A stretch of DNA of 64,000 bases from a phage: sequence record NC_129898.1; one strand, given 5' to 3'. Position numbers and translations under genes: made by a program. This document shows positions 12,039-62,450 of this stretch, one piece after another (the first letter of the stretch is position 1; each line of letters begins with the position of its first letter). The notes beneath the pieces are model-generated. The model ran no database searches, was not told the origin of the DNA, and was given only the letters and a program-made list of their open reading frames with translations.

Positions 12039-13309
12039 TGAGCGTTATTCAACAATTCACCAACCCGATGAATCCGCGTGAAACTGTTTTACTGGCTCAC
12101 GGTATGATTAAACGTGTCAGCATCAAGCCTATCAAAGGTGCTGATCCTACAACAGGTATTAAAACCACTGTGTGGCAAGGTAAGAAAATCGAGTCCAGTC
12201 ACACCATCTCTTTACTGATTTCTGAACTGGATTCTTCTGATAACCTACTTCAAGGTGGTGAAGAAGTTTGGATCAGCATGGGTGATAAATTGCTCAAACC
12301 CGGTCATCAAGATTCCGTCTCTGTTAAAATTGATGACAAGTGGGAAACAGTAACGCCAGGATGGATCGTAAATATCCCTTTAAAGGCAAATGAGCATAAC
12401 GGTAAGACCTACTACAAAGGCTCATTGGCTAAAATGGTTAAGCTGGGGGCAGGAGATGCTCCAGCAGCCCCACAGCAACAAAAACAGCAACAAGGCACAC
12501 AATCACAAGGCCAGAAGCAGAAACCTCAGCAGAATGCCAATCAGGACGTTTTACGCATCTATGGTGATGTGACTCAGATTGTTGGTAACGTGGTTACTGT
12601 CAATGACCACAAGATTGGCGAAGGTGCTATGGTTGTCTCCGATGAGCAGCTTAAAGACCTGGTGGTTGGCGGTCGTGTTGCAGCTATTGTTGACAAAGAC
12701 ACCGGGAATATTATCAGCGGCTTCAAGGCCTACCCGCCTAAAGCAGAGAACGGTACACAAGGTTCTGGTGGTAAGCGTAAATCCTCTTACGACCCCATCG
12801 GTGTAGAGACAGGGCACAGTATCAATGCGTTGCAGATCATTCTGGATCGCGGGTTTAAGATTGACAGTCCTTTAGATGTGGCTAAAACACTGCACGTGGT
12901 CACCATCGAGCTTAAGAAAGAGTACGCTCAAGCCACCAACCGAACTGAAGATGAAGTAGGTGCCAGTGTTGGTAATGCGGTATTGAACGCTTGTCGCCGT
13001 ATTGACAAGAAGACGAAAGTTGATGATTTTGCAGTAGCAATTACTGCAGAGGCAAAAGATGTCTTGACTAATCTTGCTGAACCGTTGTATGATTGGATCA
13101 AGAACGGTGCTGGAGCCACTGACCATCAAGAGCCTCAAGCTGCCAAACAGGAAGCCTCCCCACAGCAAAACACTGTAGACGCCCCTCCTGTAGATGATGC
13201 GGAAGATGACCCAATGGATCAGAATCCAGCACAGTATGACTTCTGTGATGACATACCTTTCGCTCCGGTGGGTTTGCAATATGGCAAAAGTAGAATCCAC
13301 GCATTGTAA
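12038..13309 (+). CDS. putative single-stranded DNA-binding protein (SSB-like acidic DDIPF motif)
   Basis: Q-rich linker; acidic region ending DFCDDIPF (matches bacterial SSB tail DDDIPF) but frame continues 16 codons; position after polymerase as in T7-like modules. Confidence 0.4.
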
Positions 13310-13904
13310 GAGGTGCATCAAGTGCGGAGAGGTGAAAAACCTCTCCGAGTTCTACAAACACCCAAAGATGTCTGACGGTCATCTTAATAAGTGCAAAGAG
13401 TGTTGTAAGAAGGCCAGTAGGGAGGCTGACCAGTTTTCCCACGACTCTTCAGAAAAAGGTGTAATACGCGTGTTGTACAAGGCTCAAAAGTGCAACAGCA
13501 AGCAAAGAGGTCACCCTCCTCCGACTTACACCAAAAAAGAGTTTAAGGAGTGGCTATACCTGAACGGTTACAAAGAGTTGTATGACCAGTGGGTAGCCAG
13601 CGGATACGACAAAAGGAAAAAGCCCTCTTGTGACAGGATAGATGATTTCAAAGGGTACTCTTTTGATAATATCCGTTTAACGACCTGGGGAGAAAATAAA
13701 GACAAGCAGACGGAGGATATTCTGTTGCATAGAAGCACCAGCGGTAGACGGTGTAAAAATGTAAGGAGGTTGGACATGAATGGCAACGTTCTTAAAGAAT
13801 GGGTATCCCACAATTCTTGTAGAAGAGAAACCGGAATATGTGTTGATTACTACATTCATGAAAAAATTCCAGCTCCCGATGGATACCTCTATGAATACTT
13901 TTAG
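13281..13904 (+). CDS. HNH_3-like endonuclease-like protein with N-terminal zinc ribbon (possible free-standing homing endonuclease)
   Basis: [11 protein letters not shown]...KCKECC zinc ribbon; [23 protein letters not shown] resembles HNH_3 core with His positions replaced; start overlaps end of SSB-like gene. Confidence 0.45.
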
Positions 13905-13918
13905 CACCTAACTGACAT

Positions 13919-13948
13919 AGCCCTGCCCGAAAGGGTGGGGCATTTTTG
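13919..13948 (+). terminator. intrinsic terminator (repeat of 2796-2823)
   Basis: Same CCCTGCCC-GAAA-GGGTGGGG hairpin followed by T-run. Confidence 0.6.
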
Positions 13949-13966
13949 TATAAGGAGATCTGAAAA

Positions 13967-14383
13967 ATGACATTAGAAGATATCATTGTTAAACCTGAGA
14001 ACTATGACCAATACAATCTATCAACTCAATCTGTGGACCTTGGATGCGCTACGGTCAGTGCGTGGCTGGTTAACGGAAAAGAGCTGGATAAATGCTTAGA
14101 AGCTCACATGACTGTGAACAAGTTCCTTGATGAAAATACTCACTGGCTTGAGGGTGCAGGCGTATATGCTTCATGGTTGGAGAGTATGGGATTCGACTAC
14201 CAATCTGAAGAGGGGTGGTGGAGCTATTTAGCTATCTGTCCAGAGACGCTACAATGCTTCATGAAATATTCTGAAGATTTGGAGTACCGGGCGAGGGTTG
14301 ATAGTGCTATTGCCCGTTATAGCCGTAAACCTTTTTCCCACGACATTAAAACTGTGGAAGAATTTGTTGAAGTTTTCTGTTGA
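13967..14383 (+). CDS. hypothetical protein (138 aa)
   Basis: ORF after terminator; no recognisable motif. Confidence 0.5.
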   Translation: MTLEDIIVKPENYDQYNLSTQSVDLGCATVSAWLVNGKELDKCLEAHMTVNKFLDENTHWLEGAGVYASWLESMGFDYQSEEGWWSYLAICPETLQCFMKYSEDLEYRARVDSAIARYSRKPFSHDIKTVEEFVEVFC

Positions 14384-14479
14384 CACAGATTGAAAGGTGT
14401 GCAATTATAACTTCATAGAACGGGAGGACGTGATGAACGAAGAAAACTGGGATGTATAACTAACAGGAGGCCACTGCCC

Positions 14480-14677
14480 ATGATTTATCGAATCCGTGTA
14501 AGAGAAGATGCACCAGGCTGTTACTTTGACTGGCGTGGGTGGTGGTTTCTCCACCCGATGGATGGACTCACAGATAGAATGCTGGATGCTGCCCTTTATA
14601 CAGATACCGACATAGAATATAATCTCTATCTGAAGGACGGTATAGATAACGGTCTATTTGAAGCAATTCCTGTGTAA
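14480..14677 (+). CDS. hypothetical small protein
   Basis: AGGAGG RBS; no recognisable motif. Confidence 0.45.
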   Translation: MIYRIRVREDAPGCYFDWRGWWFLHPMDGLTDRMLDAALYTDTDIEYNLYLKDGIDNGLFEAIPV

Positions 14678-14745
14678 GAGGATGTGATAGCCATGTTTTA
14701 TGATCTTCCTATAGCGCCACCACCTGTTGAACACGGAGAACTAAG

Positions 14746-15171
14746 ATGACCTATGAAATGCCAAAACTGATTCGTGATGATGCCCAAAACGCTCACACCA
14801 TTATTATGGGCAAACGCATGGATATTATTTGTCATAAAGATTTCTGGGAAGGAAGTTACTTCACAGAGTATTTTGGTAAACTGGACAATGGTCTGCTGAT
14901 CCAGTTCTACACCGATGCGGAAAACAACATTCACTGGGAGTTCGAAACTGAAGATATCCATAAACTTTTCACCTTCCTCGGTATCAAGGTTGAGGCCAAG
15001 TTTGAAGAAGGTGAGTGCGACGATTGTGGATTCTACGAGGTAACAGATTTCTATCTTCCGAGTGGTGAGAACCTTTACTATGAAAGCCACTTCGGTAACT
15101 CTAATATGCCACAGAGCTGGACTGAGTTTTTTGAAATTGTGGAAGAGGAGCTGGCATATCGTGATTATTGA
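14746..15171 (+). CDS. hypothetical protein (141 aa)
   Basis: ORF; no recognisable motif. Confidence 0.5.
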   Translation: MTYEMPKLIRDDAQNAHTIIMGKRMDIICHKDFWEGSYFTEYFGKLDNGLLIQFYTDAENNIHWEFETEDIHKLFTFLGIKVEAKFEEGECDDCGFYEVTDFYLPSGENLYYESHFGNSNMPQSWTEFFEIVEEELAYRDY

Positions 15172-15619
15172 TACTGTAGAGGGAGATTTAATCTCCCTTT
15201 TTAAGAGCGGCACTGGTCACCTGATCCACGGTTGTAACTGCTTCCACACAATGGGTAAGGGTGTAGCAAAACAGATTGCCCGTGAGTTCCCTCAAGCATT
15301 GGAAGCTGATAAAACGACTACCTACGGTTGCCTAAGTAAGCTAGGTGCGTTCTCTCGGTGGGAGCACTTATCTCCGAAAGGTATTGTATACGGAATCAAT
15401 CTGTACACTCAGTTCTACCCAGGGCCTAATGCTGAATATTTCTCAATTCTGAAAGGCTTTGAGCGAGTCAATGAGATATTTAAGGGATCGACTTTACCAT
15501 TCTACATCCCTAAGATTGGGTGCGGCATAGGCGGCTTGAAGTGGGGACACGTGGAGGACGTTATTAACCTTGCCACTTTTGATATAGATATTATCGTGGT
15601 GGAGTACAAAGAGTGTTGA
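15159..15619 (+). CDS. macro-domain protein (ADP-ribose binding / possible ADP-ribosyl hydrolase)
   Basis: GDL...IHGCNCFHTMGKGVAKQI and IPKIGCGIGGL resemble macro-domain signatures; GTG start after GAGGAG inferred. Confidence 0.6.
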
Positions 15620-15870
15620 CAGCAGGATTTTGAGGTGGTATAGTCACCACAACGACTAAGACAGGGGAACACTATGGAGACTAAAATCTTAATTCTAGCT
15701 GTGATAGATACAACAGAAGGAGCCATGTTTGAATCTGCAGGAGGGTATTTCTACCTGCCCTCTGGAAAAAGAACTTCCGAGCCGAGTAAAGATTCAATCC
15801 TTAAAGTGTTCCCGTGTGCTTTCTGGCTGGAGATTCTGATAGAGGATTGCAGAGGATTGGGGAGATAATT

Positions 15871-16065
15871 ATGAGAAACAAGAAAGAGCTTTACTCTGGA
15901 GAGTGGATCAACGATCAACAGGTCGGAGAGGTAACCTGCTTCCGGTGCTTTACTCGGTACAATCTTAAAACTGCACCAAAAAGTGTTCCAAAGACTGATG
16001 GTTATTACATAAAAGAACCTCATTGCCCAAAATGCAAATGCCGATTATACTGGAGTAACCTGTAA
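15871..16065 (+). CDS. small zinc-ribbon protein
   Basis: CFRC...CPKCKC cysteine pairs; ATG 15871 after GGGGAG. Confidence 0.45.
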   Translation: MRNKKELYSGEWINDQQVGEVTCFRCFTRYNLKTAPKSVPKTDGYYIKEPHCPKCKCRLYWSNL

Positions 16066-16128
16066 AAGGTTGACATCTGAAAACTGCAGTATATAATACA
16101 AACATAGACTAGCAGAGAGGAACAAATT

Positions 16129-16320
16129 ATGGTAATTTTTAATCGAGACGGTATCATAGTTAGACAGCACCCATTCCTTGAATACTATCAAATTGAGCAA
16201 TGGTGTTACGGAGATTGCAGTCACTCCTATGGGCAAAGTTGGGGATATCGCACAGTTTTTGAATCAACAGATCTTGATAAAGTAAAACAGAAAGTTTTAG
16301 AACTTCTTAACAACAAGTGA
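16129..16320 (+). CDS. hypothetical small protein
   Basis: ORF after promoter-like TTGACA/TATAAT at 16070-16100. Confidence 0.45.
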   Translation: MVIFNRDGIIVRQHPFLEYYQIEQWCYGDCSHSYGQSWGYRTVFESTDLDKVKQKVLELLNNK

Positions 16321-16330
16321 GTATTATACT

Positions 16331-16663
16331 ATGGTAACATTAGAAAGACGTAAAGCTATCGCCGCCACACTGGCAGACATCTTTTGGGATTGTAATTTAA
16401 AAGATACCCGATATTGCGGCGCATCTATAGATGTATTATTCCCACGGCCCACCATTGTTGCAATGGGTAGCCTACTGGGCGTAGTTGCAGGTGCATGGGA
16501 TAAGGAAGGCGGTTTCTATATCTGGCAGCCTGACTACGGGACCTGGAAAGAAGTAAGAGGTGCTGAGGACTTTGGACCTGCAGCTGCTAAGATGGATGGC
16601 TGGGAAATTTATGTTGGAAACGACATGAAGCTGAAAGGCGAGATTGTTTACTGGTTACCTTAA
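16331..16663 (+). CDS. hypothetical protein (110 aa)
   Basis: ORF in compact array. Confidence 0.45.
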   Translation: MVTLERRKAIAATLADIFWDCNLKDTRYCGASIDVLFPRPTIVAMGSLLGVVAGAWDKEGGFYIWQPDYGTWKEVRGAEDFGPAAAKMDGWEIYVGNDMKLKGEIVYWLP

Positions 16664-16683
16664 GAAAGTGCAGGAGATAAAGT

Positions 16684-16929
16684 ATGAACAAAGGGTGGAC
16701 ATTCGTAGACGGCGTTGAAAACATGCCTCTTGGAAAGTATATCGTAGCCATGGCTGACGAGAATGGCAATGTAGATTTCGGAGCTTGCGAGGTTGTTCTT
16801 GCAGGATCTGGTGACTATGTGCACAAAACTGGGGTAATTAATGGTCAGTTCTACTTTGATCACAACCCTGTTGTAGCGTATACGGCTATGCCAGAGTTCA
16901 AGTTCCCAAAGGAGGGTGCCGATGTTTAA
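16684..16929 (+). CDS. hypothetical small protein
   Basis: AGGAGA RBS; DENGNVDFG motif. Confidence 0.45.
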   Translation: MNKGWTFVDGVENMPLGKYIVAMADENGNVDFGACEVVLAGSGDYVHKTGVINGQFYFDHNPVVAYTAMPEFKFPKEGADV

Positions 16930-17116
16930 GCTTAAATCTGCATGGAACATTGCTGTAGGTGATGAGATCCGCATTCCGGGTGGGAAGACCGTTATGAAGA
17001 TATCTCGTATTGAATACGAAGGTGACCGTGTATTCCACATTTTTGCAAAAGATGGTCGAGAAATTTATATACAGGCAGGCTCACACATCTATATTCGTAA
17101 AGGGGATGACAAATGA
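16916..17116 (+). CDS. hypothetical small protein
   Basis: Overlaps upstream stop; IFAKDGREIYI motif. Confidence 0.45.
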   Translation: MPMFKLKSAWNIAVGDEIRIPGGKTVMKISRIEYEGDRVFHIFAKDGREIYIQAGSHIYIRKGDDK

Positions 17117-17454
17117 CAGAGATCATCATTTCAACTGCAGGGTATGTATTCCTGACAATCATTGCGCTGATCATCTTGGTGGTGGTGTATGGATTTGTTA
17201 TCCTGCCTATTCTTGAGACATTTAGTTTGTGTCGGTGTTGGAGAAAGGCTTACGGACCACAGCCGTGGAAAGACTGGCCTCATCTGTTACGCATAGCGTT
17301 CTCCTATGCCTATGATCACTCCAGCAGTGCATGCATAACTGGGTACCACGCCCACAATTGGAACTGGGAAGGGTTGGGGAGATGGAATGTTACAAAGACT
17401 ATACCTCTACGCATGTACAAAGGAAAAGGTGGGATTGATGGGAATACCTGTTAA
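17113..17454 (+). CDS. hypothetical membrane protein
   Basis: Hydrophobic N-terminal segment (TM helix). Confidence 0.45.
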   Translation: MTEIIISTAGYVFLTIIALIILVVVYGFVILPILETFSLCRCWRKAYGPQPWKDWPHLLRIAFSYAYDHSSSACITGYHAHNWNWEGLGRWNVTKTIPLRMYKGKGGIDGNTC

Positions 17455-18082
17455 AGACAGAAAAGTATGTGGTCGTGGAGTAAACGATTTAAAAGACAAA
17501 GTCCCAATGTACCAATCTGTTAATGGTAAGAGAGTACCAGAACCCCACTATGCTACATGGAAAGCATTATTCCAGAGGTGCTACGGCGATAACTCAAAGT
17601 ACCATACAGGTTGTGAAGTTGTAGAAGATTGGTGGTTGTTCTCAGAATTCTGGAAATGGATGGATACACAAGAGTGGAAAAGAGACGCTAAGAAGTTCAC
17701 TCTTGACAAAGATCTGAAAATCCCTGGAAACAGAATATACTCCCCAGAAACATGCATGTTTGTTCCACCACAAATAAACACCCTATTTGGCATAAGACAG
17801 GCAGCACGAGGGGATTTACCTTTGGGTGTGACACTTAGAAAAGATGTAAACAAGTATCTCGTGCATTGTCATCGAGATGGAAAAATTGTTCATGGCGGTC
17901 ATTTCGATGATCCACAGACAGCACACAAGGTGTGGCAAGAAATGAAACTTGAGGAGATGAAACTTCAGGCTATTAAAAACAAAGATGAGATTTGGCTGTT
18001 CGCCATTAAACGTGCAATAACTATCCTTGAGAATGATTTGAAAAATAATAAGGAGACTATAACATTGGTGAAATTTATTTAA
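17438..18082 (+). CDS. hypothetical protein, possible homing-endonuclease-associated DNA-binding protein
   Basis: HYATWKALFQRCYG...GCEVVEDWWLFSEFWKWM pattern recalled from phage HNH/AP2-type proteins; no catalytic motif identified. Confidence 0.4.
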   Translation: MGIPVKDRKVCGRGVNDLKDKVPMYQSVNGKRVPEPHYATWKALFQRCYGDNSKYHTGCEVVEDWWLFSEFWKWMDTQEWKRDAKKFTLDKDLKIPGNRIYSPETCMFVPPQINTLFGIRQAARGDLPLGVTLRKDVNKYLVHCHRDGKIVHGGHFDDPQTAHKVWQEMKLEEMKLQAIKNKDEIWLFAIKRAITILENDLKNNKETITLVKFI

Positions 18083-18410
18083 GATATTTATGGTAGTATT
18101 TATTTTAAAATTATAAAAATTTTAGGCGATGAGGGAAAATATGTAATGGATTTTCCCTTATTTATCAGATATTTGCAGATATTTGGAAATCCTTAGAAAA
18201 TCAGAAAATGGATCGAAAACTAAAATGGATTTTTTCAAGACAGGCACGATAAGCTGCGCTGCTCATTCTATCGTTCGCACCGTACTTCAAATCACCATTC
18301 CAGATTTTCCGCACATACTCTCACCCCTCTGCCAGAACTTTCCCAACTTACCTTCAGCCTTTTATGACAATAAGTTAATTATTATCAGTAAGTTTTGATA
18401 CATCTCTCTC

Positions 18411-42136: not shown

Positions 42137-42670
42137 TCATTTCAAGTCTGCCTCTGGTGGTGCCAACCACATAAATGGCGGCAAGTCTAGACGGTTTTTC
42201 TTGTCCCATACAAAATATGCATATGCCTGCCCATCCGTTCTACCATTGGATTGGAATGACGGACGCTTAGATATTGTGATCACAGTGGTAGGTGCATTAT
42301 CAAGCCACCATTCAAATCTGGCCTTGCTTTCCAGAAAATTAAGACGCAAAAGCATAATAACTACATCGGCATCTTTCAACGCCTTGTCTACAAACTCACG
42401 AGCCAAGCTGTACGGTGGGTTGGTGATAATACAGTCAACATGGTTGTATTCTGTATTCAGATAGTCAACACCTTCTTGGATTTCTCCCCATGCAGATCCT
42501 AACGGCATACGGGAGTAGAACACACCTGAGGCACTATTCCTGCAAGGCTCTAAGTAAGTCCAGTCTTCTGGGAACGGAATAAGGTCATACAGCCCTTCTG
42601 CACACCACTCCGGTGTCACATACTCATCGTAAGCGTTACGTTGTTCATCAGGTTTTCTAGCACAAGTCAT
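42137..42670 (-). CDS. DNA N6-adenine methyltransferase (phage Dam-like, small)
   Basis: YVTPEW N-terminal motif and DCIITNPPY catalytic motif. Confidence 0.8.
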   Translation of the reverse strand: MTCARKPDEQRNAYDEYVTPEWCAEGLYDLIPFPEDWTYLEPCRNSASGVFYSRMPLGSAWGEIQEGVDYLNTEYNHVDCIITNPPYSLAREFVDKALKDADVVIMLLRLNFLESKARFEWWLDNAPTTVITISKRPSFQSNGRTDGQAYAYFVWDKKNRLDLPPFMWLAPPEADLK

Positions 42671-46246: not shown

Positions 46247-47209
46247 TCAGCAACCACAACTTCCGTAGTGCTTAACCCGTTCTATAACCTCCGCTTGCTT
46301 ACCTTTATTGTAAGGACGGGAGTTTGGACTGGACAGATACCCGGATACACGTCTAATCACACTGATCGTTCCCTCTTCATGGTTTCCACACTCTGGGCAT
46401 ACAAAGCCTTTAGCTGTTGCACTGAACTCACCAGAGAATCCACACTTAAGACATTTATCCACAGGCTGGTTAATACCAAAATACATAATGTGTTTATATC
46501 CGAAATCAACAAGAGCTTCCAAAGCATCTAAGTTGTTTTTCAGATTTGGTGTCTCTATGTACCCAATGTTGCCACCAGAGGAGATCATAGCAAAACCTTC
46601 CTCATACTTCCACTTATCAAAAGGCGAGCTATTGATCCATACTGGCTGATGGAAACTGTTGGTGAGGTATTCATGCTCGTGCTTCAACACTTCTGGGTAT
46701 TCACGATCCAGACAGGTTGCAGCTTTATAGCATAAACTCTCAGAAGGTGTGCCGTACAAGCTAAATGCTAGTCCACTTTCCTTCTTGTATCGCTCACAAG
46801 CATCTTTCATGTGCTGAAGGATTCCAAGAGCTAAAGCCTTGTCACCCTCTCTGCCCAAAATCTGACAGGTTTCATACACACCAATATACCCAATACTGAT
46901 GGAAGCGTACCCGTCATAGAAGAGTTTATCGATACTCTCTTCAGGATCCAGGCTAGCAAGAGCTCCTTCACACCACATGATAGGGTTATGCCCTGCCTTT
47001 GTTCCTTTTAGACGGTTAACTCTTACAAGGTGAGCCTCATATGCCAAATCCAAATATTCGTCAAGAACTGCAAAGAAATCAACACCTTCCGTTTTAGCTT
47101 TTGCCGCAATCATTGGTAGGTTAAGGCTAACAACACCCAAGTTGAATCTGCCAAGGTATTTCTCCTCGCCTGTTACAGGGTCGCTATATTTCGATAAGAA
47201 ACTTCTACA
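46247..47209 (-). CDS. nrdD: anaerobic ribonucleoside-triphosphate reductase, exon 2
   Basis: Glycyl-radical motif RRVSGYL; zinc ribbon CLKCG...CPECG; begins CRSFL. Confidence 0.8.
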   Translation of the reverse strand, partial: CRSFLSKYSDPVTGEEKYLGRFNLGVVSLNLPMIAAKAKTEGVDFFAVLDEYLDLAYEAHLVRVNRLKGTKAGHNPIMWCEGALASLDPEESIDKLFYDGYASISIGYIGVYETCQILGREGDKALALGILQHMKDACERYKKESGLAFSLYGTPSESLCYKAATCLDREYPEVLKHEHEYLTNSFHQPVWINSSPFDKWKYEEGFAMISSGGNIGYIETPNLKNNLDALEALVDFGYKHIMYFGINQPVDKCLKCGFSGEFSATAKGFVCPECGNHEEGTISVIRRVSGYLSSPNSRPYNKGKQAEVIERVKHYGSCGC

Positions 47210-47971
47210 CATTATGTTCAAGGTGGTTCGCAAGGCCACCCCCGCACCATTACGTGCTGCTGCATGTCCCCATGCAGATCAGACTATATCTTCACACTTA
47301 GTGTGTCTACCATTTCGAGTGTCATCAGCTTACACCCTACACCGCTACATTCATCACGGTTAGTCGTTAGGCATTTCGTAACAGAACTCGTAATCATAGT
47401 TATTAGGTGCACCACGTTTCAGGATAGCAGATATTCTTTTTCTATCTATTCCTAAAACATCAGCACAACATCTCAGACTCTTAAAGTGAATAACCACACC
47501 AGTTAATTTGTGGGTGGCTTTCACCCCGTGACATCTTGTGTAAAAAGCATAACAGTTGTTGTCGTATCCTTCTTGAGTATTGTCTGGGCAAGCTCCCCAC
47601 TCAAGGTTGTATACGCTGTTATCTTTCCTGTTGTCACCTTTGTGCTTAACATATGGTAAATTGTCTGGATTTGGTAAAAACGCTTCAGCAACAAGTCTGT
47701 GAACCCTTAGGCAAACAGTCTTTTTGTTCTTGCGTATCCTGACAAGACGGTAACCTGTGTTTATCTCTTCCCACGAATGAATAATTCTTTCATTTTCGTA
47801 TCGGGTGCAATAAACATTGCCCATCTCGTCAATTTCATAACCTTCAAAATCACGAATTTGTTTTCTCATTTCAGGACTCCTCTTAGTCAGGAGTTCTGTT
47901 ACGTTTAGCACGGGATTGTCCGTTCTGGAGTTTCCCCGTTTAGATAGATTTTACATGAGCAGTTATAGTTT
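47210..47971 (-). mobile_element. group I intron in nrdD carrying an HNH homing endonuclease gene
   Basis: 762 nt break between ...TSMG and CRSFL...; exon ends in U, intron ends in G; HNH ORF in a different frame; P7-like GACUAA and UAGUCUGA downstream of the ORF. Confidence 0.65.
47360..47911 (-). CDS. intron-encoded HNH homing endonuclease
   Basis: HRLVAEAF...VKHKGDNRKDN...NLEW HNH core; C-terminal helix-turn-helix-like IDRKRISAILKRG; AAGAGGAG RBS. Confidence 0.8.
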   Translation of the reverse strand: MLNVTELLTKRSPEMRKQIRDFEGYEIDEMGNVYCTRYENERIIHSWEEINTGYRLVRIRKNKKTVCLRVHRLVAEAFLPNPDNLPYVKHKGDNRKDNSVYNLEWGACPDNTQEGYDNNCYAFYTRCHGVKATHKLTGVVIHFKSLRCCADVLGIDRKRISAILKRGAPNNYDYEFCYEMPND

Positions 47972-49132
47972 ACCCATGCTTGTTACTTTGCCGTCTGTTG
48001 AACCTGTCACTTTACGATTTAGTGGAACAGAAACAAAGTCAGGATAAATCCGCTCTGCAGAGCATTCTAGAGCCAATCGTTTCAAATCGTAGTTAGGATC
48101 CCCAGGGTTCATGTTGACACCCTCCTCTAAGAAGAACAGCACTTTAGGAAACACAGGGGTGATCCGTTCTTCACCAAGACCCATTTTGTGGACTTTCAAG
48201 TAGTTTTTGGTAATCATTCTACCAAAGACCGAGGTATCCAGTCCTAAACTTAATGTGATGAATGGAGTTTGCCCGTTGACAGAAGTTAACGTATTGATTT
48301 GGTAGAGCAAAGTTTGCATACTATCAAACACGTCTTTATCTGTCATTTGCATTGCAACAGTCTCAGCATCTGGCAACCAATGCTCCTGACAAAATTTAAG
48401 GTTCTTCTCATAGGTTGCTTCAGCATACTGTGCCAGATAATGATCAATATGGCTCATGGTTTGACCACCATATTGAGCACTAGCTACTGCACTAGAGATT
48501 TGGCTAAGGATTGTTGTTGCAACCCCTATTGACTTCGGCTTACTGACATGGGCGTTGCCAATGTTGAATCCGTTTTCCAGCATATCCGGATAATTTACCA
48601 AACAACAGTTTGTTAACGGACTGATCAGGTAGTCAAGATCATGCACATGGATGAAGCCTTTGTTGTGCTCTTCGGAGACACGGTCTGGCAGGATCTGTGT
48701 TGATGCAAGATGTTTGCTAAGGATGCCTGCAAGCAGGTCACGATGAGTGTGTACATGATTAGTAGGCTTATTTGCGTTTTCTTTTGTAAATTCATCACAA
48801 GTACGATCCAAGAAGCCACTAATATCTGCAAGCAGTTTTCCACCTGCCTCTCTGTTATTATCTCTTGTCTGTCTATACTGGATGTATTCTCTGGCTGCAC
48901 ATTTTAAACCCATATCCATAAGAGCATCTTCAACAAGGATATGGATATTTTTTACAGAGATCGTGCACTGGTCGGTTGGCAGATTGTTGGCAACAACTTC
49001 ATTAACCGCACAGGCAATCCGGTAAGCTTCTTCTTCAGTATGTCCAGACTCAAGTAAGGCGGACTCTGCCGCCTTGATCACCTTAATTCCGTTATAAAAC
49101 TCTTCTCTACCGTCCCGTTTTACAACTTTCAC
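47972..49132 (-). CDS. nrdD: anaerobic ribonucleoside-triphosphate reductase, exon 1
   Basis: ATP-cone-like N-terminus MKVVKRDGREEF; frame stops 3 codons after inferred splice point. Confidence 0.8.
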
Positions 49133-56714: not shown

Positions 56715-57525
56715 ACCTGGTCTCCAAAATGTATTGTAGTTCTTTCTTGCCTATACTCTTCATTCCAGCAGTCTTACCTGCTTCTTCTTGAAAAGAAGAA
56801 TAGCATTCAGCAAACACTCTGTCAACACCATCAACTAAAGATTTTATGAAATATGTTGATTCTTCAGATTTTGGGTCATCCTTCCCCAATACTTTTCCAG
56901 CATTATACCCAACACGCCTTATGCAGAAGTCGTAGTCATCTGGTGTACTAAAAGAAAATAGCTTATTCTCCCCAATCTCTACAGGATCCCTATTGCACAC
57001 CTTTTTCTCCCAAATTTGGAAAACACATGGCACGTCATAAGGTTTGCCGTTGAGTAAAAACGAGTTCTTGGGGCACCTTTCGCTGTAAATAAGGTGCATC
57101 GACATGTCCAGTTTGTTTGCAAAAAATATTTTTTCAAATGTCCGTGGCAAGATGAAGGCTATAGCCCCACCAGGCTCTAGCAATGATGCACAGTGGTTAA
57201 AAAACTTGCAAGCTAAAGACGAATTTTTGCCGAATGGAGGATTACCTATGAAGACATCAGCTTTAGGGTACACCTCTAAGAAGTTTGCCTTAATACACGG
57301 TGTTGGGCCTTCAAATTCAGGATCTGGTACCAAATCGTACGACAGTATCTCTGAAAATAGTTTTGAAAAAGAACCCTTTCCAGCAGAAGGCTCAACGTAT
57401 GCACAACTCCCATACTTACCTTTTACTTTACCAACAAGATATTCTGCATACTCAGGGTCTGTGTAATATTTGTCGTTGGACTCTTTCTTGCTCAAGGTGC
57501 CTCCAAAATGAAAAGGGAGGCGCAA
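56689..57525 (-). CDS. DNA N6-adenine methyltransferase (gamma-class)
   Basis: Motif I EPSAGKGSF precedes motif IV GNPPFG. Confidence 0.75.
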   Translation of the reverse strand: MRLPFHFGGTLSKKESNDKYYTDPEYAEYLVGKVKGKYGSCAYVEPSAGKGSFSKLFSEILSYDLVPDPEFEGPTPCIKANFLEVYPKADVFIGNPPFGKNSSLACKFFNHCASLLEPGGAIAFILPRTFEKIFFANKLDMSMHLIYSERCPKNSFLLNGKPYDVPCVFQIWEKKVCNRDPVEIGENKLFSFSTPDDYDFCIRRVGYNAGKVLGKDDPKSEESTYFIKSLVDGVDRVFAECYSSFQEEAGKTAGMKSIGKKELQYILETRYDQKYRLD

Positions 57526-57540
57526 GCCTCCCTCTACTTG

Positions 57541-58524
57541 TCAGATTATCTGAATCAGGGTGTTTTTCATCTCTTCTCGGGTACGGATGTTGTTACGATC
57601 ACGAACAACAGACCCACAACCTTCGCAGCGGTAGGTTTTAAATGCACTCAGTTGAGTATACGCCAAAGCCTCTTCCTCGTGAAGGTGTTCTCCACCACAA
57701 CGTGGGCAACGAACTTTTGACTCCTCATCTTGGTAGTACAACGACATGTTGGGGTGCTGCTTAGCAAACGGACGCGCCAGCAAATACAGTCCTTCCAGAG
57801 ACAAGATGTCCCCAACATTATACTCCCGCATCTGTTTAAACGCCTCAAGATCACCATGAACACACTTGATCCACATTTCAAATGTGTGGTCAATTAGTTT
57901 CTGTCTGGCCAGTTGGAAGTATTTACATGCATACTCTAACGTGTTTGCATTCAAACGGAATGCCTTTTTAATCATCTTGAGGGTGTCAACCTCTTTGTAT
58001 GGGCTTGTTGGCGGCAAACCGTGAAATGCAAATCGTTGGTTAGCCCACCCACAGTCAAAACCAGAGTTGTGTGCTACTGCGACATCACATTTATCCAAAT
58101 AATACCACAAATCTTGAATCAGCTCAAGATCGTTGTGGATATCCTCGCCCCACATTTTGTAATCAGGAAGAGCACAGTCAACCACGCTAGGGCTGTCTAA
58201 CCATTTACCTGCGAAAGTTAGCATATAGGGCATAATTTCAATACCGCAGGTTTGAATGTTGGTCTTATAATGCCCAAAGAACCAGCCGTTTGTTGGGGAT
58301 GTCTCTGTATCATACACCCAAACTTTAGCACCTTTGTGTTCTTCAAGGAAGCGCTCCGTTGCCTCTCCTACAATCTCTGACATATTCTCTTGTGCACGTT
58401 TAAGCTGTAGCCGGATCCAGCTCTCACGTGACTCACTACCTAAAAATTCACGAGCAATTTGTCTATTAGTGTATCCCTGTTGCTTCAGTGTTAAAATTTG
58501 CTCAAGAGTTAACTTTGTCATCAT
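57541..58524 (-). CDS. DnaQ-like 3'-5' exonuclease with N-terminal HTH and C-terminal zinc ribbon
   Basis: Exo I VWVYDTETS, Exo II HNSGFDCGW, Exo III YNVGD; CPRCGG...CEGCG. Confidence 0.6.
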   Translation of the reverse strand: MMTKLTLEQILTLKQQGYTNRQIAREFLGSESRESWIRLQLKRAQENMSEIVGEATERFLEEHKGAKVWVYDTETSPTNGWFFGHYKTNIQTCGIEIMPYMLTFAGKWLDSPSVVDCALPDYKMWGEDIHNDLELIQDLWYYLDKCDVAVAHNSGFDCGWANQRFAFHGLPPTSPYKEVDTLKMIKKAFRLNANTLEYACKYFQLARQKLIDHTFEMWIKCVHGDLEAFKQMREYNVGDILSLEGLYLLARPFAKQHPNMSLYYQDEESKVRCPRCGGEHLHEEEALAYTQLSAFKTYRCEGCGSVVRDRNNIRTREEMKNTLIQII

Positions 58525-58536
58525 CGTTAAGATTCC

Positions 58537-58752
58537 TTAGTAAAACTGAAGAATGTCTTTTAAAGCGAAGTCACGATATTCGCCCTTGTCTACATCAAAT
58601 GCATGCATCAACCACTGCTCTTCTTTATGATACTCTGTAGATCCAAACCATAAACTAGGCTCAGTAACGCAGCGATCTGCAACAACACCTTTCCAGTTAC
58701 GGTATTTCATTCTGATCAGAACTGAATCGCAAGGATTGAATACCTTTTTCAT
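58537..58752 (-). CDS. hypothetical small protein
   Basis: ORF; start uncertain. Confidence 0.35.
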   Translation of the reverse strand: MKKVFNPCDSVLIRMKYRNWKGVVADRCVTEPSLWFGSTEYHKEEQWLMHAFDVDKGEYRDFALKDILQFY

Positions 58753-59302
58753 CCCCATAGAAATCTCTCTCCTCAGTTTTCTTTATAAACTCCTGCATGT
58801 ATGCCTCAATAGCCTCATGCTTGGTGTACTCTGAATTAATGACAAGATCGAGATCCGATTCTGCCCGTGCAATAATCGTAGCCTTAGAGCATCTCCTCAA
58901 GAACTTTGTCATATCATCTCTGTAGTTTTTGTGGAGCGGGAAGTCGCTGTAGTCTTTCTCCAGATAGTCAGCCATCCGGCGCAACGCCTCTGATAAACTG
59001 CAATCTGTGTACTCGTTACAGTATTTCATCCAGTATTTAAGCACATACCCCTCGAAGGTATTAGTGCATTGGGACAAAACACCCCTGCAACGACCAGTCA
59101 GATGATCATGATCTAAACAAGGCTTACGAAGTGGTTCACACAAGATCGGATCAAGACCATCCTGCTCTTCTGACAATTCTTTTCGAAAGTTGGCTATGTC
59201 CTTAGAATCTTTTAGCCACCCGCTATGAACGGGGGCTTTGACAGCTTTCTTTCTTATTTTACGCTTTGCGATAATCCCTCCAGATGCGCCCTGCCTATCC
59301 AA
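58697..59302 (-). CDS. endonuclease VII-family protein
   Basis: CLDHDHLTGRCRGVLSQCTN matches Endonuclease_7 hallmark. Confidence 0.7.
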   Translation of the reverse strand: MDRQGASGGIIAKRKIRKKAVKAPVHSGWLKDSKDIANFRKELSEEQDGLDPILCEPLRKPCLDHDHLTGRCRGVLSQCTNTFEGYVLKYWMKYCNEYTDCSLSEALRRMADYLEKDYSDFPLHKNYRDDMTKFLRRCSKATIIARAESDLDLVINSEYTKHEAIEAYMQEFIKKTEERDFYGDEKGIQSLRFSSDQNEIP

Positions 59303-59883
59303 TAAGCATCTGCAAGATCGGCCTTACCTTGTACCAAATTGATCCCATCCAGGAACCCCGGTTCAGATACTTCGCAGGCCTTAACCATCAACTTTTTATC
59401 CATCGTAACAGGTTTCTTCACAGTATGCTCTTTACCTGTCCTTTTGTCAAGCTTTTTCTTCTCCTCAAAAGCAAGTTCTTCAGGAAGATGACTACGAGCA
59501 AACTTTTTGGCAGTTGTTGGTGTCACTGTGTGGACCTTAAACAGGCCGTCATTTTCACAATCTGCTAAAGCATCCCAAAGCATAACTTCAAGACCATAAA
59601 ACAACCCAGCCAGTTCACGTGTGGCATCTCCTCGCGATCCGAAGGAGAGCCCTTCCATAACCACGGTGTCAACGCCGTGCGTGTGGATATAATATCTAAC
59701 CTGTTTGCAGATCCAGTCAATACGCTCAGCAGCTGTTGCAAAAGAAACCGTCCCTGGTTTCTTTTCTTTTGCAGACGAGCTTTGGGTTCGTAACACAACC
59801 TTATGAACAGGCCTACCATCGTCCCATACAACGCAGGCCGTGTGGGTAAGAGACTGGTCTATAGACAGCAGTCTTTCTCTCAT
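59254..59883 (-). CDS. RuvC-like Holliday junction resolvase
   Basis: LLSIDQSLTHTACVVWD N-terminus, MEGLSFGSRG and DAYWIGRAHL. Confidence 0.6.
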   Translation of the reverse strand: MRERLLSIDQSLTHTACVVWDDGRPVHKVVLRTQSSSAKEKKPGTVSFATAAERIDWICKQVRYYIHTHGVDTVVMEGLSFGSRGDATRELAGLFYGLEVMLWDALADCENDGLFKVHTVTPTTAKKFARSHLPEELAFEEKKKLDKRTGKEHTVKKPVTMDKKLMVKACEVSEPGFLDGINLVQGKADLADAYWIGRAHLEGLSQSVK

Positions 59884-60206
59884 GCTGTCTCCTCTTCATC
59901 TGGGGCATAAGCTTTGTCTTTGAACAACACAAGGGAGCAAAGCTTAACATCTGTTTCCACACTGGTAAACATGCATAACCGCTCGCCCTCGATCAGCTCA
60001 CAGTCCTCTTTTAAAACAGCAGACCATACACGATCATCTGCGTAATCATCAGTATACAAGATGTATGCAATAGTGTCATCTTCATACAACCGCCACATAC
60101 CTGTGGCAACAATAAATGTATTTTTTGTTTTAATGGTGCCTGTTGTATGGTCATCCTCAAAAACAGCTTCCATAATTGCATTATCTACAGAGTTTTTAGT
60201 CATCAA
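59880..60206 (-). CDS. hypothetical protein
   Basis: Overlapping start/stop. Confidence 0.45.
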   Translation of the reverse strand: MMTKNSVDNAIMEAVFEDDHTTGTIKTKNTFIVATGMWRLYEDDTIAYILYTDDYADDRVWSAVLKEDCELIEGERLCMFTSVETDVKLCSLVLFKDKAYAPDEEETA

Positions 60207-61342
60207 ATTGCTCCAACATTTCTAAGAACATTAACAAGTTTTGTTTGGTCATTGAATGATCGCTTCATATACAAACAGTCGAAAATTATACTCATCCACT
60301 GACCTACGGAAATCCTACGGTCGATACCATTGAAATCAGTATACTTAACGGCACCTTTCGGAAACCATTTTTTATACTGATCAATGATTGCTAACCACAT
60401 CTCCTTCGGTGTGCTGCACTGAGACAGCAAGGAGAATGCAGATGCATCTCCAAACTTTCCTTTACCAATAAGCCCTTGGTAAGGCTTAATATTGTCAGCT
60501 GAGTCACCACATAGCATTTGATAACCGAAGAACAACATTCCATACCCACCAACATCTCCGTTTGGTTTCATGAATATGTTACCCATACCGTTATCAATAA
60601 GCATAGGAGTTTCTCTTACAAAATCACCTTTATCGTTCCTCATCGGATCGAATACAAGCCCAGGAAGTGTTCGCTGGTCCTTATCTATAGAGATAATAAA
60701 CTTGTTGAACTTACCTGTTTTCTGGTAGTGGTTCCAACCTTCAAATTGCTGGATAGCTAACCAGTCGTCAGCTTCAATACCGTTGATCACCTGAGCGTTA
60801 TACTGCTTTTGGAGATACTGTCTTGCATCTTCAAGCAACAGTGGTCGAAGAGTATTGTTACGGTTGGCTTTATATCGTTCCGGCATGGGAAGATCTAGTC
60901 TGAAATTACCTGTGCCTCCAAGCACTCCTACGCACCGATCTTCAGGAATACCAAGATAGTTAAGGACTGCGTTAGCTTTACACTTAATTGTGTGCAAGCA
61001 GTTCTCTACAGGATCAGGGGTTTGGATATCCAAGACATCGAAATCTTCACGTGTCCACGGAATAAACTCCTTGCCAGCTTTTTTACATGCAGCTTCACGG
61101 TTGGTGTTCTCAGCCTTTAACCAACCGCCAACTGCGTTCTTCTGCCTCCCCCAAAACTCTGTTCGTGTTTTGAACACCTTCTTACGTCCGGAGGCTTTAT
61201 GTGTTACCTCAATTGTCCTTTTTTCACAACTTGCTGCAGCTTGATATGCAACCTGATCGAAGTCATAATAAACTATAGCGTCAGGTTCAAGAAGATCAGC
61301 TAGACAATCTATGGACTCAATAAGTGGATATTCTCTACTCAA
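60203..61342 (-). CDS. 5'-3' exonuclease / flap endonuclease
   Basis: GIEADDW and GDSADNI motifs typical of phage FEN/5'-3' exonucleases. Confidence 0.75.
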   Translation of the reverse strand: MSREYPLIESIDCLADLLEPDAIVYYDFDQVAYQAAASCEKRTIEVTHKASGRKKVFKTRTEFWGRQKNAVGGWLKAENTNREAACKKAGKEFIPWTREDFDVLDIQTPDPVENCLHTIKCKANAVLNYLGIPEDRCVGVLGGTGNFRLDLPMPERYKANRNNTLRPLLLEDARQYLQKQYNAQVINGIEADDWLAIQQFEGWNHYQKTGKFNKFIISIDKDQRTLPGLVFDPMRNDKGDFVRETPMLIDNGMGNIFMKPNGDVGGYGMLFFGYQMLCGDSADNIKPYQGLIGKGKFGDASAFSLLSQCSTPKEMWLAIIDQYKKWFPKGAVKYTDFNGIDRRISVGQWMSIIFDCLYMKRSFNDQTKLVNVLRNVGAI

Positions 61343-61643
61343 AGACCCTCCTGTTAGTTACTCTGCAAGATGGTTGGATGCTGTAATGGAATGCATCATC
61401 ACTCTCTGCAATAAGCGACTCAACATCCCAATATTTTTCAAAAAGGAACGGATTAGACCCCCAGTGGTGGGTTATTTTCATCAAGGAGTCTGGTATCAGA
61501 TAACCAGAGATCTTAACTACATCACCAGGTTGAATTGTGTTTTCATGAAGGTTGCTTGCCTTCTTCAGGATCATACCTTTATGATTCTCGTTTGCATACA
61601 ACTGGACAATATCTTTATCTTCAACAATAAAAATTTTAAGCAT
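61335..61643 (-). CDS. hypothetical protein
   Basis: ORF in array. Confidence 0.4.
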   Translation of the reverse strand: MLKIFIVEDKDIVQLYANENHKGMILKKASNLHENTIQPGDVVKISGYLIPDSLMKITHHWGSNPFLFEKYWDVESLIAESDDAFHYSIQPSCRVTNRRVFE

Positions 61644-61702
61644 ACCTAGTTCTCCTAGTTTATAAATATCTGACTGATACTATCAGATTAATGACACTTT
61701 TG

Positions 61703-61996
61703 TCAAGACTTTTTAGTCTTCCTTGGAGAGCTTTTTGTTGATCTTTTCCGTTTGTGGTAGATTCCAAGTGCAGCGTTTTCTTGTGCGCACGTTTTAACAG
61801 TTCTCAGACAAGAACTTTCAGCTTTAGGCAGGTTTAACTCCCACCAACCAAGCCAGTAAAGTTCTGATTCAGACAACTGCTCAGATTCAGCCTTCCGATA
61901 CAATGATTGCATACCTCTAATAATGTCGTCCAGAGGCGTATCGAATACAAAAGCTGTCTTATCAAATTTCTCTTTTACAGGTTTCTTAGCCATCAA
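61703..61996 (-). CDS. hypothetical protein (basic C-terminus)
   Basis: ORF in array. Confidence 0.4.
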   Translation of the reverse strand: MMAKKPVKEKFDKTAFVFDTPLDDIIRGMQSLYRKAESEQLSESELYWLGWWELNLPKAESSCLRTVKTCAQENAALGIYHKRKRSTKSSPRKTKKS

Positions 61997-62450
61997 GGTA
62001 ACCCTCTATCCACGAAAAGTCAGTCTTCCATTCCGGAACTTTACTAAGCTCACGCCACTCTGCAAAGCAGTCTCGGTAATAGGCCTCTGCCATACCTTTA
62101 GTGATCTTATTCACCTTAGCCAACTGATTAACTGCCTGAGCATACTTCCCACGGATATTTGCTAACCCAGGGTGCACCGATGTGTGACAATCCGGGCACA
62201 GAGCTATCAGTCCGACAAGCCGGATCACCCCCTCTTCGAAGGTGTAAAGTTCATGACACTCCACAGGGTGTTTGCTACCTTTGCCGCCACACACCTCGCA
62301 AGTGTAGTTGGCCTCTCTGTAGCACTTCTTACGGATCTTATCCCACTCACTCTTCTTCACAGCGTTTCGGAGGTTATTATACCAAGCTGTTTCTGGGATC
62401 AGTTGTACAATAAGCCTGCGTTCAGACTTCATTAAACGTCCGTCTTCCAC
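61986..62450 (-). CDS. HNH-type nuclease
   Basis: CEVCGG...HPVECHE...LCPDCHTSVH HNH-like Cys/His spacing. Confidence 0.5.
   Translation of the reverse strand: MEDGRLMKSERRLIVQLIPETAWYNNLRNAVKKSEWDKIRKKCYREANYTCEVCGGKGSKHPVECHELYTFEEGVIRLVGLIALCPDCHTSVHPGLANIRGKYAQAVNQLAKVNKITKGMAEAYYRDCFAEWRELSKVPEWKTDFSWIEGYLDG

Follow-up and report, generated by a model that had tools for sequence, protein, structure and literature searches.

I-HmuI, a member of the Pfam HNH_3 group (PDB 1u3e), is encoded by the DNA polymerase intron of Bacillus phage SPO1. PacI (PDB 3ldy/3m7k; His-Me finger group 20, PMC5714182) is a stand-alone homodimeric restriction enzyme of bacteria that lacks NUMOD and AP2 domains, and it is active even though Tyr replaces His (PMC5714182, PMC4081073). 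Further relevant enzymes are those of the IPA-HNH class (PMC10448857) and the HNH-AP2 endonucleases of cyanobacteria and phages. In T4, the free-standing homing endonuclease genes mob and seg are inserted between conserved genes or at gene ends, are present or absent among close relatives and co-occur with group I introns that interrupt genes for polymerase and nrd functions. The same is true of the selfish elements of the related Certrevirus CB7, reported to number 23 per genome; the introns of CB7 have been demonstrated to splice (PMC7344957). Group I introns of the T4 td/nrdD/nrdB type are collected in Rfam RF00028.

We analysed a window of 64,000 nucleotides that is, by its sequence, a genome segment of an rV5-like (Vequintavirus) phage of E. 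coli. A preliminary description had reported HNH-type genes at four open reading frames (ORFs), termed here HEG1 to HEG4. All four are present and encode His-Me finger (HNH-superfamily) nucleases, although these are not equivalent to one another. Each has strong homologs (PHROG E-values of 2e-41 to 2e-72, with hundreds to thousands of database relatives), and none is therefore a chance ORF; profile searches place all four within endonuclease families rather than outside them. The observation is thus confirmed, while the interpretation placed on it is partly supported. In the account that best explains the data overall, and that we consider probable, the replication and nucleotide-metabolism module carries three mobile endonuclease elements together with a group I intron that has no ORF and two fixed His-Me finger nuclease genes of housekeeping type.

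Table 1. Positions of the endonuclease genes, introns and adjoining features in the window.
Feature	Position	Strand	Remarks
ORF-less group I intron in family A DNA polymerase gene, 328 nt	8156-8483	+	RF00028; bounds by alignment to intron-less ECP26
Core gene upstream of HEG1	12038-13309	+	3′ end rewritten by insertion
HEG1 insertion, clean, 638 nt	13261-13898	+	Alignment to empty-site YP-6, FV3, A51.2, FFH2, Pr121LW
HEG1, free-standing homing endonuclease gene, 207 aa	13281-13904	+	PacI-like/I-HmuI-like fold and motif
Terminator-like hairpin, then T run	13920-13941	+	Just 3′ of HEG1; common to occupied and empty alleles
HEG2 insertion/replacement	17422-18177	+	Relative to rV5, about 756 nt replaces about 100 nt
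HEG2, free-standing IPA-HNH-type homing endonuclease gene, 214 aa	17438-18082	+	
nrdD exon 2	46247-47209	-	
nrdD group I intron, 762 nt	47210-47971	-	Exact interruption in alignment to intron-less ECP26
HEG3, intron-encoded I-HmuI-like HNH endonuclease gene, 169 aa from ATG	47360-47869	-	PDB 1u3e, 6.3e-8
nrdD exon 1	47972-49132	-	
Endonuclease VII homolog (recombination endonuclease VII)	58697-59302	-	Pfam PF02945 1.4e-7, above cut-off; PHROG 423 4e-37
HEG4, conserved core HNH nuclease gene, 154 aa	61986-62450	-	PHROG 5200 2e-72; Pfam HNH E 0.064, below cut-off

The gene previously recognized as an intron-encoded HNH is indeed I-HmuI-like. HEG3 aligns with I-HmuI over its full length and retains the His and Asn of the HNH motif. 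Like I-HmuI, it is a protein of about 170 aa with a C-terminal helix-turn-helix, and its gene lies in a group I intron that interrupts a phage gene of DNA metabolism. It differs in being hosted by nrdD instead of the polymerase gene, and in that its Pfam scores (HNH_3, 4.9e-4; I-HmuI_NUMOD-like, 1.7e-3) fall below the gathering cut-offs; PHROG 59 is matched at 3e-33. The interval first reported, 47360-47911, extends to a GTG and represents the longest possible ORF. Translation more likely starts at the ATG at 47869: a GAGGAG ribosome-binding site precedes it, the gene is then 510 nt long, as in the EPFV3 and JEP1 annotations, and the I-HmuI alignment begins there.

Both introns that had been proposed for this DNA are real. 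Like the T4-type introns, they split conserved catalytic regions, match the Rfam core and conform to the U(-1)/G(omega) rule. In nrdD, U ends the 5′ exon and G ends the intron, a predicted P1 pairs intron GCUCAU with exon AUGGGU, and removal of the intron in silico yields a continuous NrdD ORF of 707 aa. The 3′ core of the nrdD intron shares 72-80% identity with the introns of T-even td and nrdD. This intron differs from the T4 type in that its match to Rfam Intron_gpI (32.9 bits, E 2.9e-6) falls short of the gathering score, the 5′ part of the model being displaced by the ORF. For the polymerase intron the score is 75.6 bits, above the gathering score of 50; this intron interrupts the YYHDEY motif between H and D and is polymorphic across the genus. 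It differs from the T4 type in that its ORF was lost or never present; in FV3 a 514-nt HNH ORF is inserted in this intron at 8289/8290. The polymerase intron, the second of the two in the preliminary description, lies outside the range flagged there.

The nrdD intron with HEG3 is complete in 28 records, compared with approximately 120 vequintaviruses. Over the first 30 nucleotides of exon 2, identity to the intron-less allele drops to 60%, compared with 93.6% overall, and most of these changes are synonymous. By analogy with I-HmuI, the HEG3 product would cut or nick the intron-less nrdD of a co-infecting relative beside the insertion site, and repair would then copy the intron together with flanking exon sequence into the recipient gene. 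Self-splicing of the intron would leave NrdD intact.

HEG1, identical in length to the annotated rV5 gp208 (624 nt), begins with a Cys4 zinc ribbon and ends in a NUMOD/I-HmuI-like helix-turn-helix predicted to bind DNA, a NUMOD-like domain being found in homologs. Between these lies a PacI-like beta-beta-alpha-metal core that is devoid of His (D118, R119, D122, Y126, N139), in which Arg occupies the position of the catalytic His and the invariant Tyr matches that of PacI. The earlier label “HNH_3-like” fits only loosely: a search with Pfam HNH_3 gave no match, and the HEG1 family profile finds I-HmuI (E=0.0018) and PacI (E=0.011).

HEG2, which equals the annotated YP6_00071 in length (645 nt), had been listed as possibly associated with homing endonucleases, a suggestion that holds. 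It has the defining architecture of the IPA-HNH endonucleases, with an N-terminal HNH-related domain beyond the reach of Pfam HNH_3 and a C-terminal AP2 DNA-binding domain, and its family matches the class as described (PMC10448857). Like members of that class, it is free-standing, adjoins conserved genes and is patchily distributed. Membership is assigned by this architecture and by PHROG hits (953, 374). The core carries Lys at the catalytic His position (D90, K91, D92, Y101, N114), these D, K, D, Y and N residues are invariant, and Cys4 sites are absent. The family exceeds 9000 cluster representatives, and HEG2 itself occurs in only three phage records.

When the HEG1 and HEG2 families were compared profile to profile, no significant similarity emerged. 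Both differ from PacI in being phage-borne, in possessing separate DNA-binding domains and in their mobile behaviour, and sequence similarity to PacI is marginal. They also depart from the T4 mob genes, which encode a canonical HNH with His.

The HEG1 insertion lies after the last codons of the upstream core gene and before the terminator of that same gene, extending the protein beyond its DDIPF terminus by 15 codons. Among 57 evenly spaced genomes examined with a flank probe, the site is occupied in 25 (~44%) and empty in 32. A comparison of six occupied and five empty genomes, which are mutually related, uncovered only three fixed differences between the alleles within 1.6 kb flanks, all at distances of 3-8 nt from the stop codon of HEG1 and 9-14 nt from the right junction as mapped. 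The HEG2 insertion supplants the last ~7 codons of its upstream gene (17113-17454).

Each of the two genes is thus wedged against the end of a conserved upstream neighbour, whose final codons it overlaps or replaces, and is probably expressed from the transcript of that neighbour. Each protein joins a sequence-reading module (zinc ribbon and NUMOD-like helix-turn-helix in HEG1, AP2 in HEG2) to a beta-beta-alpha-metal nuclease core, wherein Tyr would act instead of His as in the PacI active site, whose Asp, Tyr and Asn are matched by invariant residues. Most likely, both enzymes cut empty-site alleles close to where the insertion lies and are spread by recombinational repair, while the sequence changes at the junctions would protect carriers from cleavage.

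It is conceivable, though improbable, that HEG1 and HEG2 are catalytically dead through loss of the general-base His and are retained as DNA-binding proteins such as regulators, their patchiness reflecting gain and loss of accessory genes. The Arg and Lys at the catalytic position would fit such a fate, as would the absence of any nuclease domain for either protein in Pfam searches and the fairly high share of non-synonymous changes among altered HEG2 codons (6/15 and 2/6); moreover, co-option of AP2 or CapR-type DNA-binding domains from homing endonucleases is documented (PMC10448857). However, PacI is active despite exactly this substitution (PMC5714182, PMC4081073), its active-site Asp, Tyr and Asn vary little or not at all among 40 diverse homologs in each family, and the beta-beta-alpha topology of both cores is predicted with high confidence. 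The insertions are also clean and site-specific with junction-linked substitutions, and HEG1 is more similar between genomes (96.8-99.4%) than its flanks are (91-94%), both as expected under active homing. These identities bear equally on the idea, to which we likewise give little credence, that a vequintavirus ancestor possessed HEG1 and the nrdD and polymerase introns and that many lineages precisely deleted them. The intermediate frequency of HEG1 is compatible with such losses, and the polymerase intron, ORF-less in the window and HNH-containing in FV3, shows that an ORF can be precisely lost from, or gained by, an element of this kind. Yet HEG3 is identical at 510 of 510 positions in EPFV3 and JEP1 although the JEP1 flanks are 95.7% identical, and HEG1 is 99.4% identical to the JES2013 copy, which argues that these genes moved laterally not long ago instead of being inherited from a distant ancestor. 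The 5′ junction of HEG1 also exists in two forms (variants A and B), and HEG2 is limited to its three records. In any case, homing-cycle theory predicts exact deletion, restoring a stop codon or an intact ORF, alongside invasion, so loss is no alternative to it.

The preliminary description had gone further, regarding all four genes as selfish homing endonucleases in a genome heavily colonized by them. That every one is a His-Me finger nuclease and that the window holds two introns favour this reading, as does the frequent GenBank label “homing endonuclease” for homologs of HEG4, yet the distribution of HEG4 makes it quite unlikely. Presence/absence polymorphism, proposed there as a check, is seen for HEG1, HEG2 and the intron ORF but not for HEG4, which has a homolog at the same locus in 121 of 121 matching records, covering all ~120 vequintaviruses. 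A tblastn search finds it in 239 records, 118 at ≥95% amino acid identity and 121 at <60% (33-51% in the listed examples), the latter from other, distant genera of the Vequintavirinae. Relative to EPFV3 ORF174, of equal length (465 nt), its codon changes comprise 20 synonymous and one non-synonymous. It lacks a NUMOD- or AP2-type DNA-binding module, and its CxxC..H..CxxCH..H motif is intact, with C51, C54, H66, E67, C85, C88, H89 and H93 invariant. By these sequence criteria HEG4 behaves as a vertically inherited core gene under strong purifying selection and is not demonstrably selfish, although it may be an old, fixed homing gene kept active through other selection. As an intact HNH zinc-finger nuclease, it would be retained subfamily-wide for some nuclease role beneficial to the phage. 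A fifth His-Me finger gene, absent from the earlier list, lies within the flagged range; this endonuclease VII homolog is a housekeeping junction resolvase and not a homing element.

The description “heavily colonized” is likewise overstated. Three mobile endonuclease genes and one ORF-less intron per 64 kb are far fewer elements than the 23 per genome of CB7 (PMC7344957), and they occupy a subset of the approximately nine insertion sites known in the same module across the genus. The mobile load of the window is moderate and typical of the subfamily, and its homing-gene content is ordinary for the rV5-like group, as documented before.

Two segments of the window match more than 100 rV5-like E. 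coli myoviruses (Vequintavirus) at 90-99% identity by megablast, with EPFV3-03/2025, YP-6, HMD-6 and 241Ecol014PP as the closest relatives. The window represents a replication and nucleotide-metabolism module, with genes for a helicase/primase, a family A DNA polymerase, nrdDG, nrdAB, thyX, an exonuclease, endonuclease VII, RNase H, ligase and lysozyme along with a long series of small early genes; a tRNA scan of the window identified no tRNA genes. Approximately 20 records (MG065635-MG065690) bear the name 'Campylobacter phage' and list Campylobacter jejuni as host; in every region tested they share 92-95% identity with E. coli vequintaviruses, and the host labels are probably wrong.

A preliminary description of this DNA reported four HNH-type genes and two introns. 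All four open reading frames were located where described, three of them having the same length as annotated genes of relatives, and both introns were recovered, that of the polymerase gene at the Rfam gathering level and that of nrdD below the threshold with an exact interruption of its reading frame. The possibility that any of the four is a chance reading frame is excluded because all match PHROG families (E-values of 2e-41 to 2e-72) and have many database homologs. For the intron-encoded gene, 47360-47911 is the maximal frame, which begins at a GTG codon; an ATG at 47869 with a GAGGAG ribosome-binding site is the start annotated in EPFV3 and JEP1, and homology to I-HmuI begins there.

Mobile elements, nucleases and associated features in the window and in related phages
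Feature	Coordinates	Strand	Match or remark
N6/N4 DNA methyltransferase, 464 aa	137-1531	+	Pfam 3.9e-42
Other methyltransferase	2811-3605		PHROG scan
Polymerase intron (group I, 328 nt)	8156-8483	+	RF00028, 75.6 bits
Gene upstream of HEG1	12038-13309		
HEG1 insertion (638 nt)	13261-13898		
HEG1, free-standing	13281-13904	+	PHROG 1035 ('endonuclease VII'), 2e-41
HEG2, free-standing	17438-18082	+	PHROG 953 ('HNH endonuclease'), 5e-65
Other methyltransferase	42137-42670		PHROG scan
nrdD intron (762 nt)	47210-47971	-	RF00028, 32.9 bits
HEG3, I-HmuI-like HNH gene in nrdD intron	47360-47869	-	1u3e, E 6.3e-8
Endonuclease VII homolog	58697-59302	-	PF02945, 1.4e-7; non-selfish superfamily member within 13281-62450
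97-aa ORF	61703-61996	-	PHROG 6208; overlaps HEG4 3' end by 11 nt
HEG4, HNH gene	61986-62450	-	Pfam HNH (PF01844), 13.9 bits
241Ecol014PP: in-frame ~1-kb Hint-domain (intein-like) polymerase insertion	L002 7169-8170		
241Ecol014PP: NUMOD4+HNH_3 gene after polymerase	L002 9202-9849		
JEP1: T5orf172 gene between nrdD and nrdG	L006 737-1672		
JEP1: second nrdD intron with HNH_3	L006 3804-4337		
FV3: HNH_3-like ORF in polymerase intron	L008 897-1403		

HEG1, the first of the two free-standing genes, occupies an insertion that is cleanly absent from YP-6, FV3, A51.2, FFH2 and Pr121LW, and that separates the final codons of a conserved gene (408 aa) from the terminator hairpin of that gene. The frequency of the insertion was estimated with a joined-flank probe whose matches were sampled evenly down the ranking. 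Among the 57 genomes obtained, 32 have an empty site (1598 nt with the probe), 14 carry the variant present in the window (A) and 11 carry a second variant (B) with a different 5' junction, so that this one locus is occupied in 25 of 57. When six occupied and five empty genomes are compared, the sole fixed differences within 1.6 kb flanks are at 13907, 13911 and 13912, at the downstream junction; they are the sole, indirect evidence that the predicted enzyme may cut the empty allele close to the insertion and favor its own transmission in mixed infections. HEG1 itself shows 96.8-99.4% identity in genome comparisons where the flanks show 91-94%. This excess is suggestive of lateral movement, and we take it as no more than supportive because one small neighboring gene (198 nt) is equally conserved, at 99-100% identity, and the pattern is therefore not unique to HEG1.

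The HEG1 protein has no Pfam match at E≤1. Approximately 200 homologs of about 200 amino acids each are present in diverse phages, and none of the 40 that were aligned matches HNH_3, although a C-terminal Pfam I-HmuI_NUMOD-like domain is matched in 14 of them. The alignment reveals four invariant cysteines arranged as two CxxC pairs and a core of the form PSxDRxD...Y..N........N; no variation is seen at R119, Y126 or N139 and hardly any at D118, D122 or N130, and no histidine is conserved. Arg119 lies opposite His75 of I-HmuI. The predicted beta-beta-alpha fold, Asp and Asn metal ligands, omega-loop Tyr and Cys4 zinc sites are those of a PacI-like, Tyr-type His-Me finger nuclease (group 20 of PMC5714182). 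The gene had been called 'HNH_3-like', which is fair for its ancestry and architecture but not for Pfam membership, since PF13392 is unmatched, nor for its chemistry, with Arg119 in place of the catalytic His. Likewise, the 'endonuclease VII' label carried by its homologs in many GenBank records is a misannotation, because the real resolvase of this phage is the separate PF02945 homolog. Overall, HEG1 is a predicted homing endonuclease gene, free-standing and atypical in being His-less.

The insertion also alters the end of the gene upstream of HEG1. In empty-site alleles the protein encoded there ends in DDIPF, and such an acidic tip is a hallmark of E. coli SSB. In variant A carriers, including the window and rV5, the upstream frame runs 15 codons further and buries the DDIPF tip (13240-13309), whereas in variant B carriers the terminus stays ..SIPF. 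Pfam and PDB sequence searches did not identify this protein, and of its tblastn matches only a distant, partial one is annotated as SSB; the SSB identification is treated as no more than a lead. If this reading is true, extension of the SSB-like ..DDIPF C-terminus in variant A would amount to a fitness cost, or a modulation, that a homing gene places directly on its host gene.

HEG2, the second free-standing gene, also encodes a protein that has no Pfam match, and an exhaustive phmmer search recovered 9384 cluster representatives of its family. Their alignment has an invariant core, LDKD...N..Y....C.......N, followed by a YPLGV...Y.A.I...GK...LG.F....AH.AW segment. With its C-terminal AP2 DNA-binding domain, HEG2 shares the architecture of the IPA-HNH homing endonucleases of ICP1 and many other phages, whose HNH domain is also undetected by Pfam (PMC10448857). 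The gene occurs in only three phage records (YP-6, 241Ecol014PP and an EC22.5-2 contig), and rV5 has an empty site, the presence/absence pattern of a free-standing homing gene. Compared with rV5, HEG2 takes the place of the final seven codons of the upstream gene and of ~100 nt of spacer, and its start overlaps the new end of that gene. A PDB search with the single HEG2 sequence returned only a match to Argonaute, which is due to chance.

HEG1 and HEG2 were identified only by PHROGs, family alignments, PDB profile searches and predicted folds. Homology between the two families is not significant (hhalign E of 0.14), and we claim no such relationship. PacI is without a catalytic His; a loop Tyr takes the role of this residue, and Asp and Asn bind the metal (two reviews: PMC5714182, PMC4081073). 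Modest similarity scores suggest that the families of HEG1 and HEG2 may share this His-to-Tyr active-site arrangement. We raise, with somewhat less than even confidence, the idea that PHROG 1035 proteins and the AP2-linked IPA-HNH family may not be 'HNH' in the chemical sense, an omega-loop Tyr replacing the general-base His as in PacI. Both families are very large and mostly unannotated, with more than 9000 cluster representatives for the AP2-linked IPA-HNH group, and PHROG 1035 proteins are usually mislabelled 'endonuclease VII'. If the idea is true, PacI would have been domesticated from within a widespread lineage of mobile nucleases in which Tyr chemistry is the rule.

The third mobile gene resides within an intron. 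Alignment with the uninterrupted nrdD of ECP26 places the insertion from 47971 down to 47210. A U closes the 5' exon and a G closes the intron, and as read from the sequence a P1 helix is possible between exon AUGGGU and intron GCUCAU with a U.G wobble at the splice site, as expected for precise interruption by a group I intron. Joining the exons yields an uninterrupted 707-aa NrdD that is collinear with the ECP26 protein. The Rfam score, obtained in a 1.4-kb search (E 2.9e-6), does not reach the gathering score of 50; P7-P9 align well and the 5' part of the model is misplaced inside the ORF.

HEG3, the I-HmuI-like gene of this intron, lies entirely within the insertion, whose removal restores nrdD. 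Its product matches the I-HmuI structure 1u3e over its whole length, to residue 172 of 174, with ..VKHKGDNRKDNSVYNLEW..PDN.. opposite ..VDHKDGNKDNNLSTNLRW..KIN.., and its HNH motif keeps both His and Asn, the catalytic and metal-binding residues of a beta-beta-alpha-metal motif of the I-HmuI/HNH_3 kind. Pfam scores remain below the cut-offs for both HNH_3 (20.1 versus 24.8 bits) and I-HmuI_NUMOD-like, the profile of the putative C-terminal helix-turn-helix DNA-binding domain (18.3 versus 27 bits). The complete element is found in 28 phage records, and many of the ~120 vequintaviruses with an nrd region show an intron-less span; HEG3 is thus both intron-encoded and patchily distributed among close relatives. 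The ORF is identical at 510 of 510 positions in EPFV3 and in JEP1, and the surrounding 4 kb of JEP1 is 95.7% identical. Moreover, the first 30 nt of exon 2 (47180-47209, minus strand) share only 60% identity with the intron-less allele of ECP26, compared with 93.6% for nrdD overall; the differences are almost all synonymous, and the amino acids CRSFLSKY are unchanged. Such a diverged exon start would fit a co-conversion tract, divergence of the target site recognized by the endonuclease, or both. Taken at the sequence level, these are the standard signatures of a mobile group I intron that is probably active or was recently so. Splicing has been demonstrated for analogous introns of the related phage CB7 (PMC7344957).

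The intron of the polymerase gene, defined by alignment to ECP26, splits ..YYH|DEY.. precisely, and its removal restores ..YYHDEYQ..; its RF00028 score exceeds the gathering score of 50. In the window this intron lacks an ORF. In FV3 and many other phages, 514 nt that include an HNH_3-like ORF are inserted at 8289/8290, and members of the genus have at this site no intron, an intron without an ORF or an intron with one. An identical 18-nt block, GCACGTAATGGTGCGGGG, lies near the 3' ends of both the polymerase and the nrdD intron (8438-8483, plus strand, and 47210-47257, minus strand), and the hairpin after it shows a compensatory change of one pair between the two introns (GGTGG/CCACC versus GGTAG/CTACC). 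The similarity suggests that the two introns had a common origin or that their 3' domains were exchanged.

HEG4 presents a different picture. Its HNH motif is intact: C51, C54, H66, E67, C85, C88, H89 and H93 do not vary across 29 diverse homologs, some of them encoded in cyanobacterial genomes, and these residues provide the general-base His and the Cys4 zinc site (CxxC...CxxC) of a canonical zinc-finger HNH nuclease, although the Pfam HNH score does not reach the cut-off of 21.4 bits. There is also a weak match to the En domain of a group II intron maturase (6me0, E 0.015). Many GenBank records label the homologs of this gene 'homing endonuclease', and the preliminary description counted it among selfish elements. 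However, neither a sporadic distribution nor an empty site was found in any record covering the locus, the gene being present in 121 of 121 matching records, and the protein is without a NUMOD or AP2 module. By tblastn, 118 records have at least 95% amino acid identity and 121 more have less than 60% (33-51% in the examples listed), the latter from Seunavirus, Certrevirus, Phapecoctavirus-like and other relatives, such that the distribution is subfamily-wide. Among 21 nucleotide differences from EPFV3, 20 are synonymous and one changes a codon non-synonymously; HEG4 is under purifying selection. Because HEG4 lacks the only defining property of homing genes that could be tested, the best reading is that it encodes a nuclease that has become fixed and is maintained for its function, a core gene rather than a selfish one, and its 'homing endonuclease' label is probably wrong. 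An HK97-type packaging role has no positional support, since the gene is not adjacent to terminase.

The 97-aa ORF that overlaps the end of HEG4 is annotated as 'transposase-like' in many records. Fusion to a PF18974 domain is seen in some distant HEG4 homologs, and one such fusion protein (P0219) is called 'transposase-like' by JGI.

Searches with HMMs of the four families revealed no further copies among 338 window ORFs, and when the larger ORFs without annotation between 18 and 46 kb were scanned against PHROGs, methyltransferases and unknowns emerged but no other nuclease. Two window-specific segments (25.9-27.1 kb and 40.2-40.9 kb) contain only small ORFs that have no nuclease features. 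The methyltransferase gene near the start of the window fills a ~1.4-kb segment that 241Ecol014PP lacks at the same place. The window total is three mobile endonuclease genes and two introns. Several elements carried by relatives in the same module are missing: the HNH ORF of the polymerase intron, the in-frame Hint-domain insertion in polymerase, the NUMOD4+HNH_3 gene after polymerase, a second nrdD intron, the T5orf172 gene between nrdD and nrdG, and an extra HNH gene near lysozyme. The endonuclease load of this genome is therefore moderate, and the earlier phrase 'heavily colonised' overstates it; the selfish character ascribed to all four genes holds for HEG1, HEG2 and HEG3 and probably not for HEG4. 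It is already known that rV5-like phages and their relatives differ in the HNH genes and group I introns they contain: in the literature, the rV5 terminase gene has an intron that carries a homing endonuclease (PMC3606486), CB7 has 23 homing endonucleases and spliced introns (PMC7344957), and BASEL vequintaviruses bear 'putative homing endonuclease' annotations.

These findings leave the general picture of rV5-like phages and their relatives unchanged, and their main value is correct annotation, including that of the conserved nuclease hidden by the 'homing endonuclease' label on HEG4. If two abundant families of phage endonucleases do have a His-to-Tyr active site in common, this would be a modest biochemical lead. 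The three mobile genes mark recombination hot-spots and explain indels between near-identical phages used for therapy or typing.
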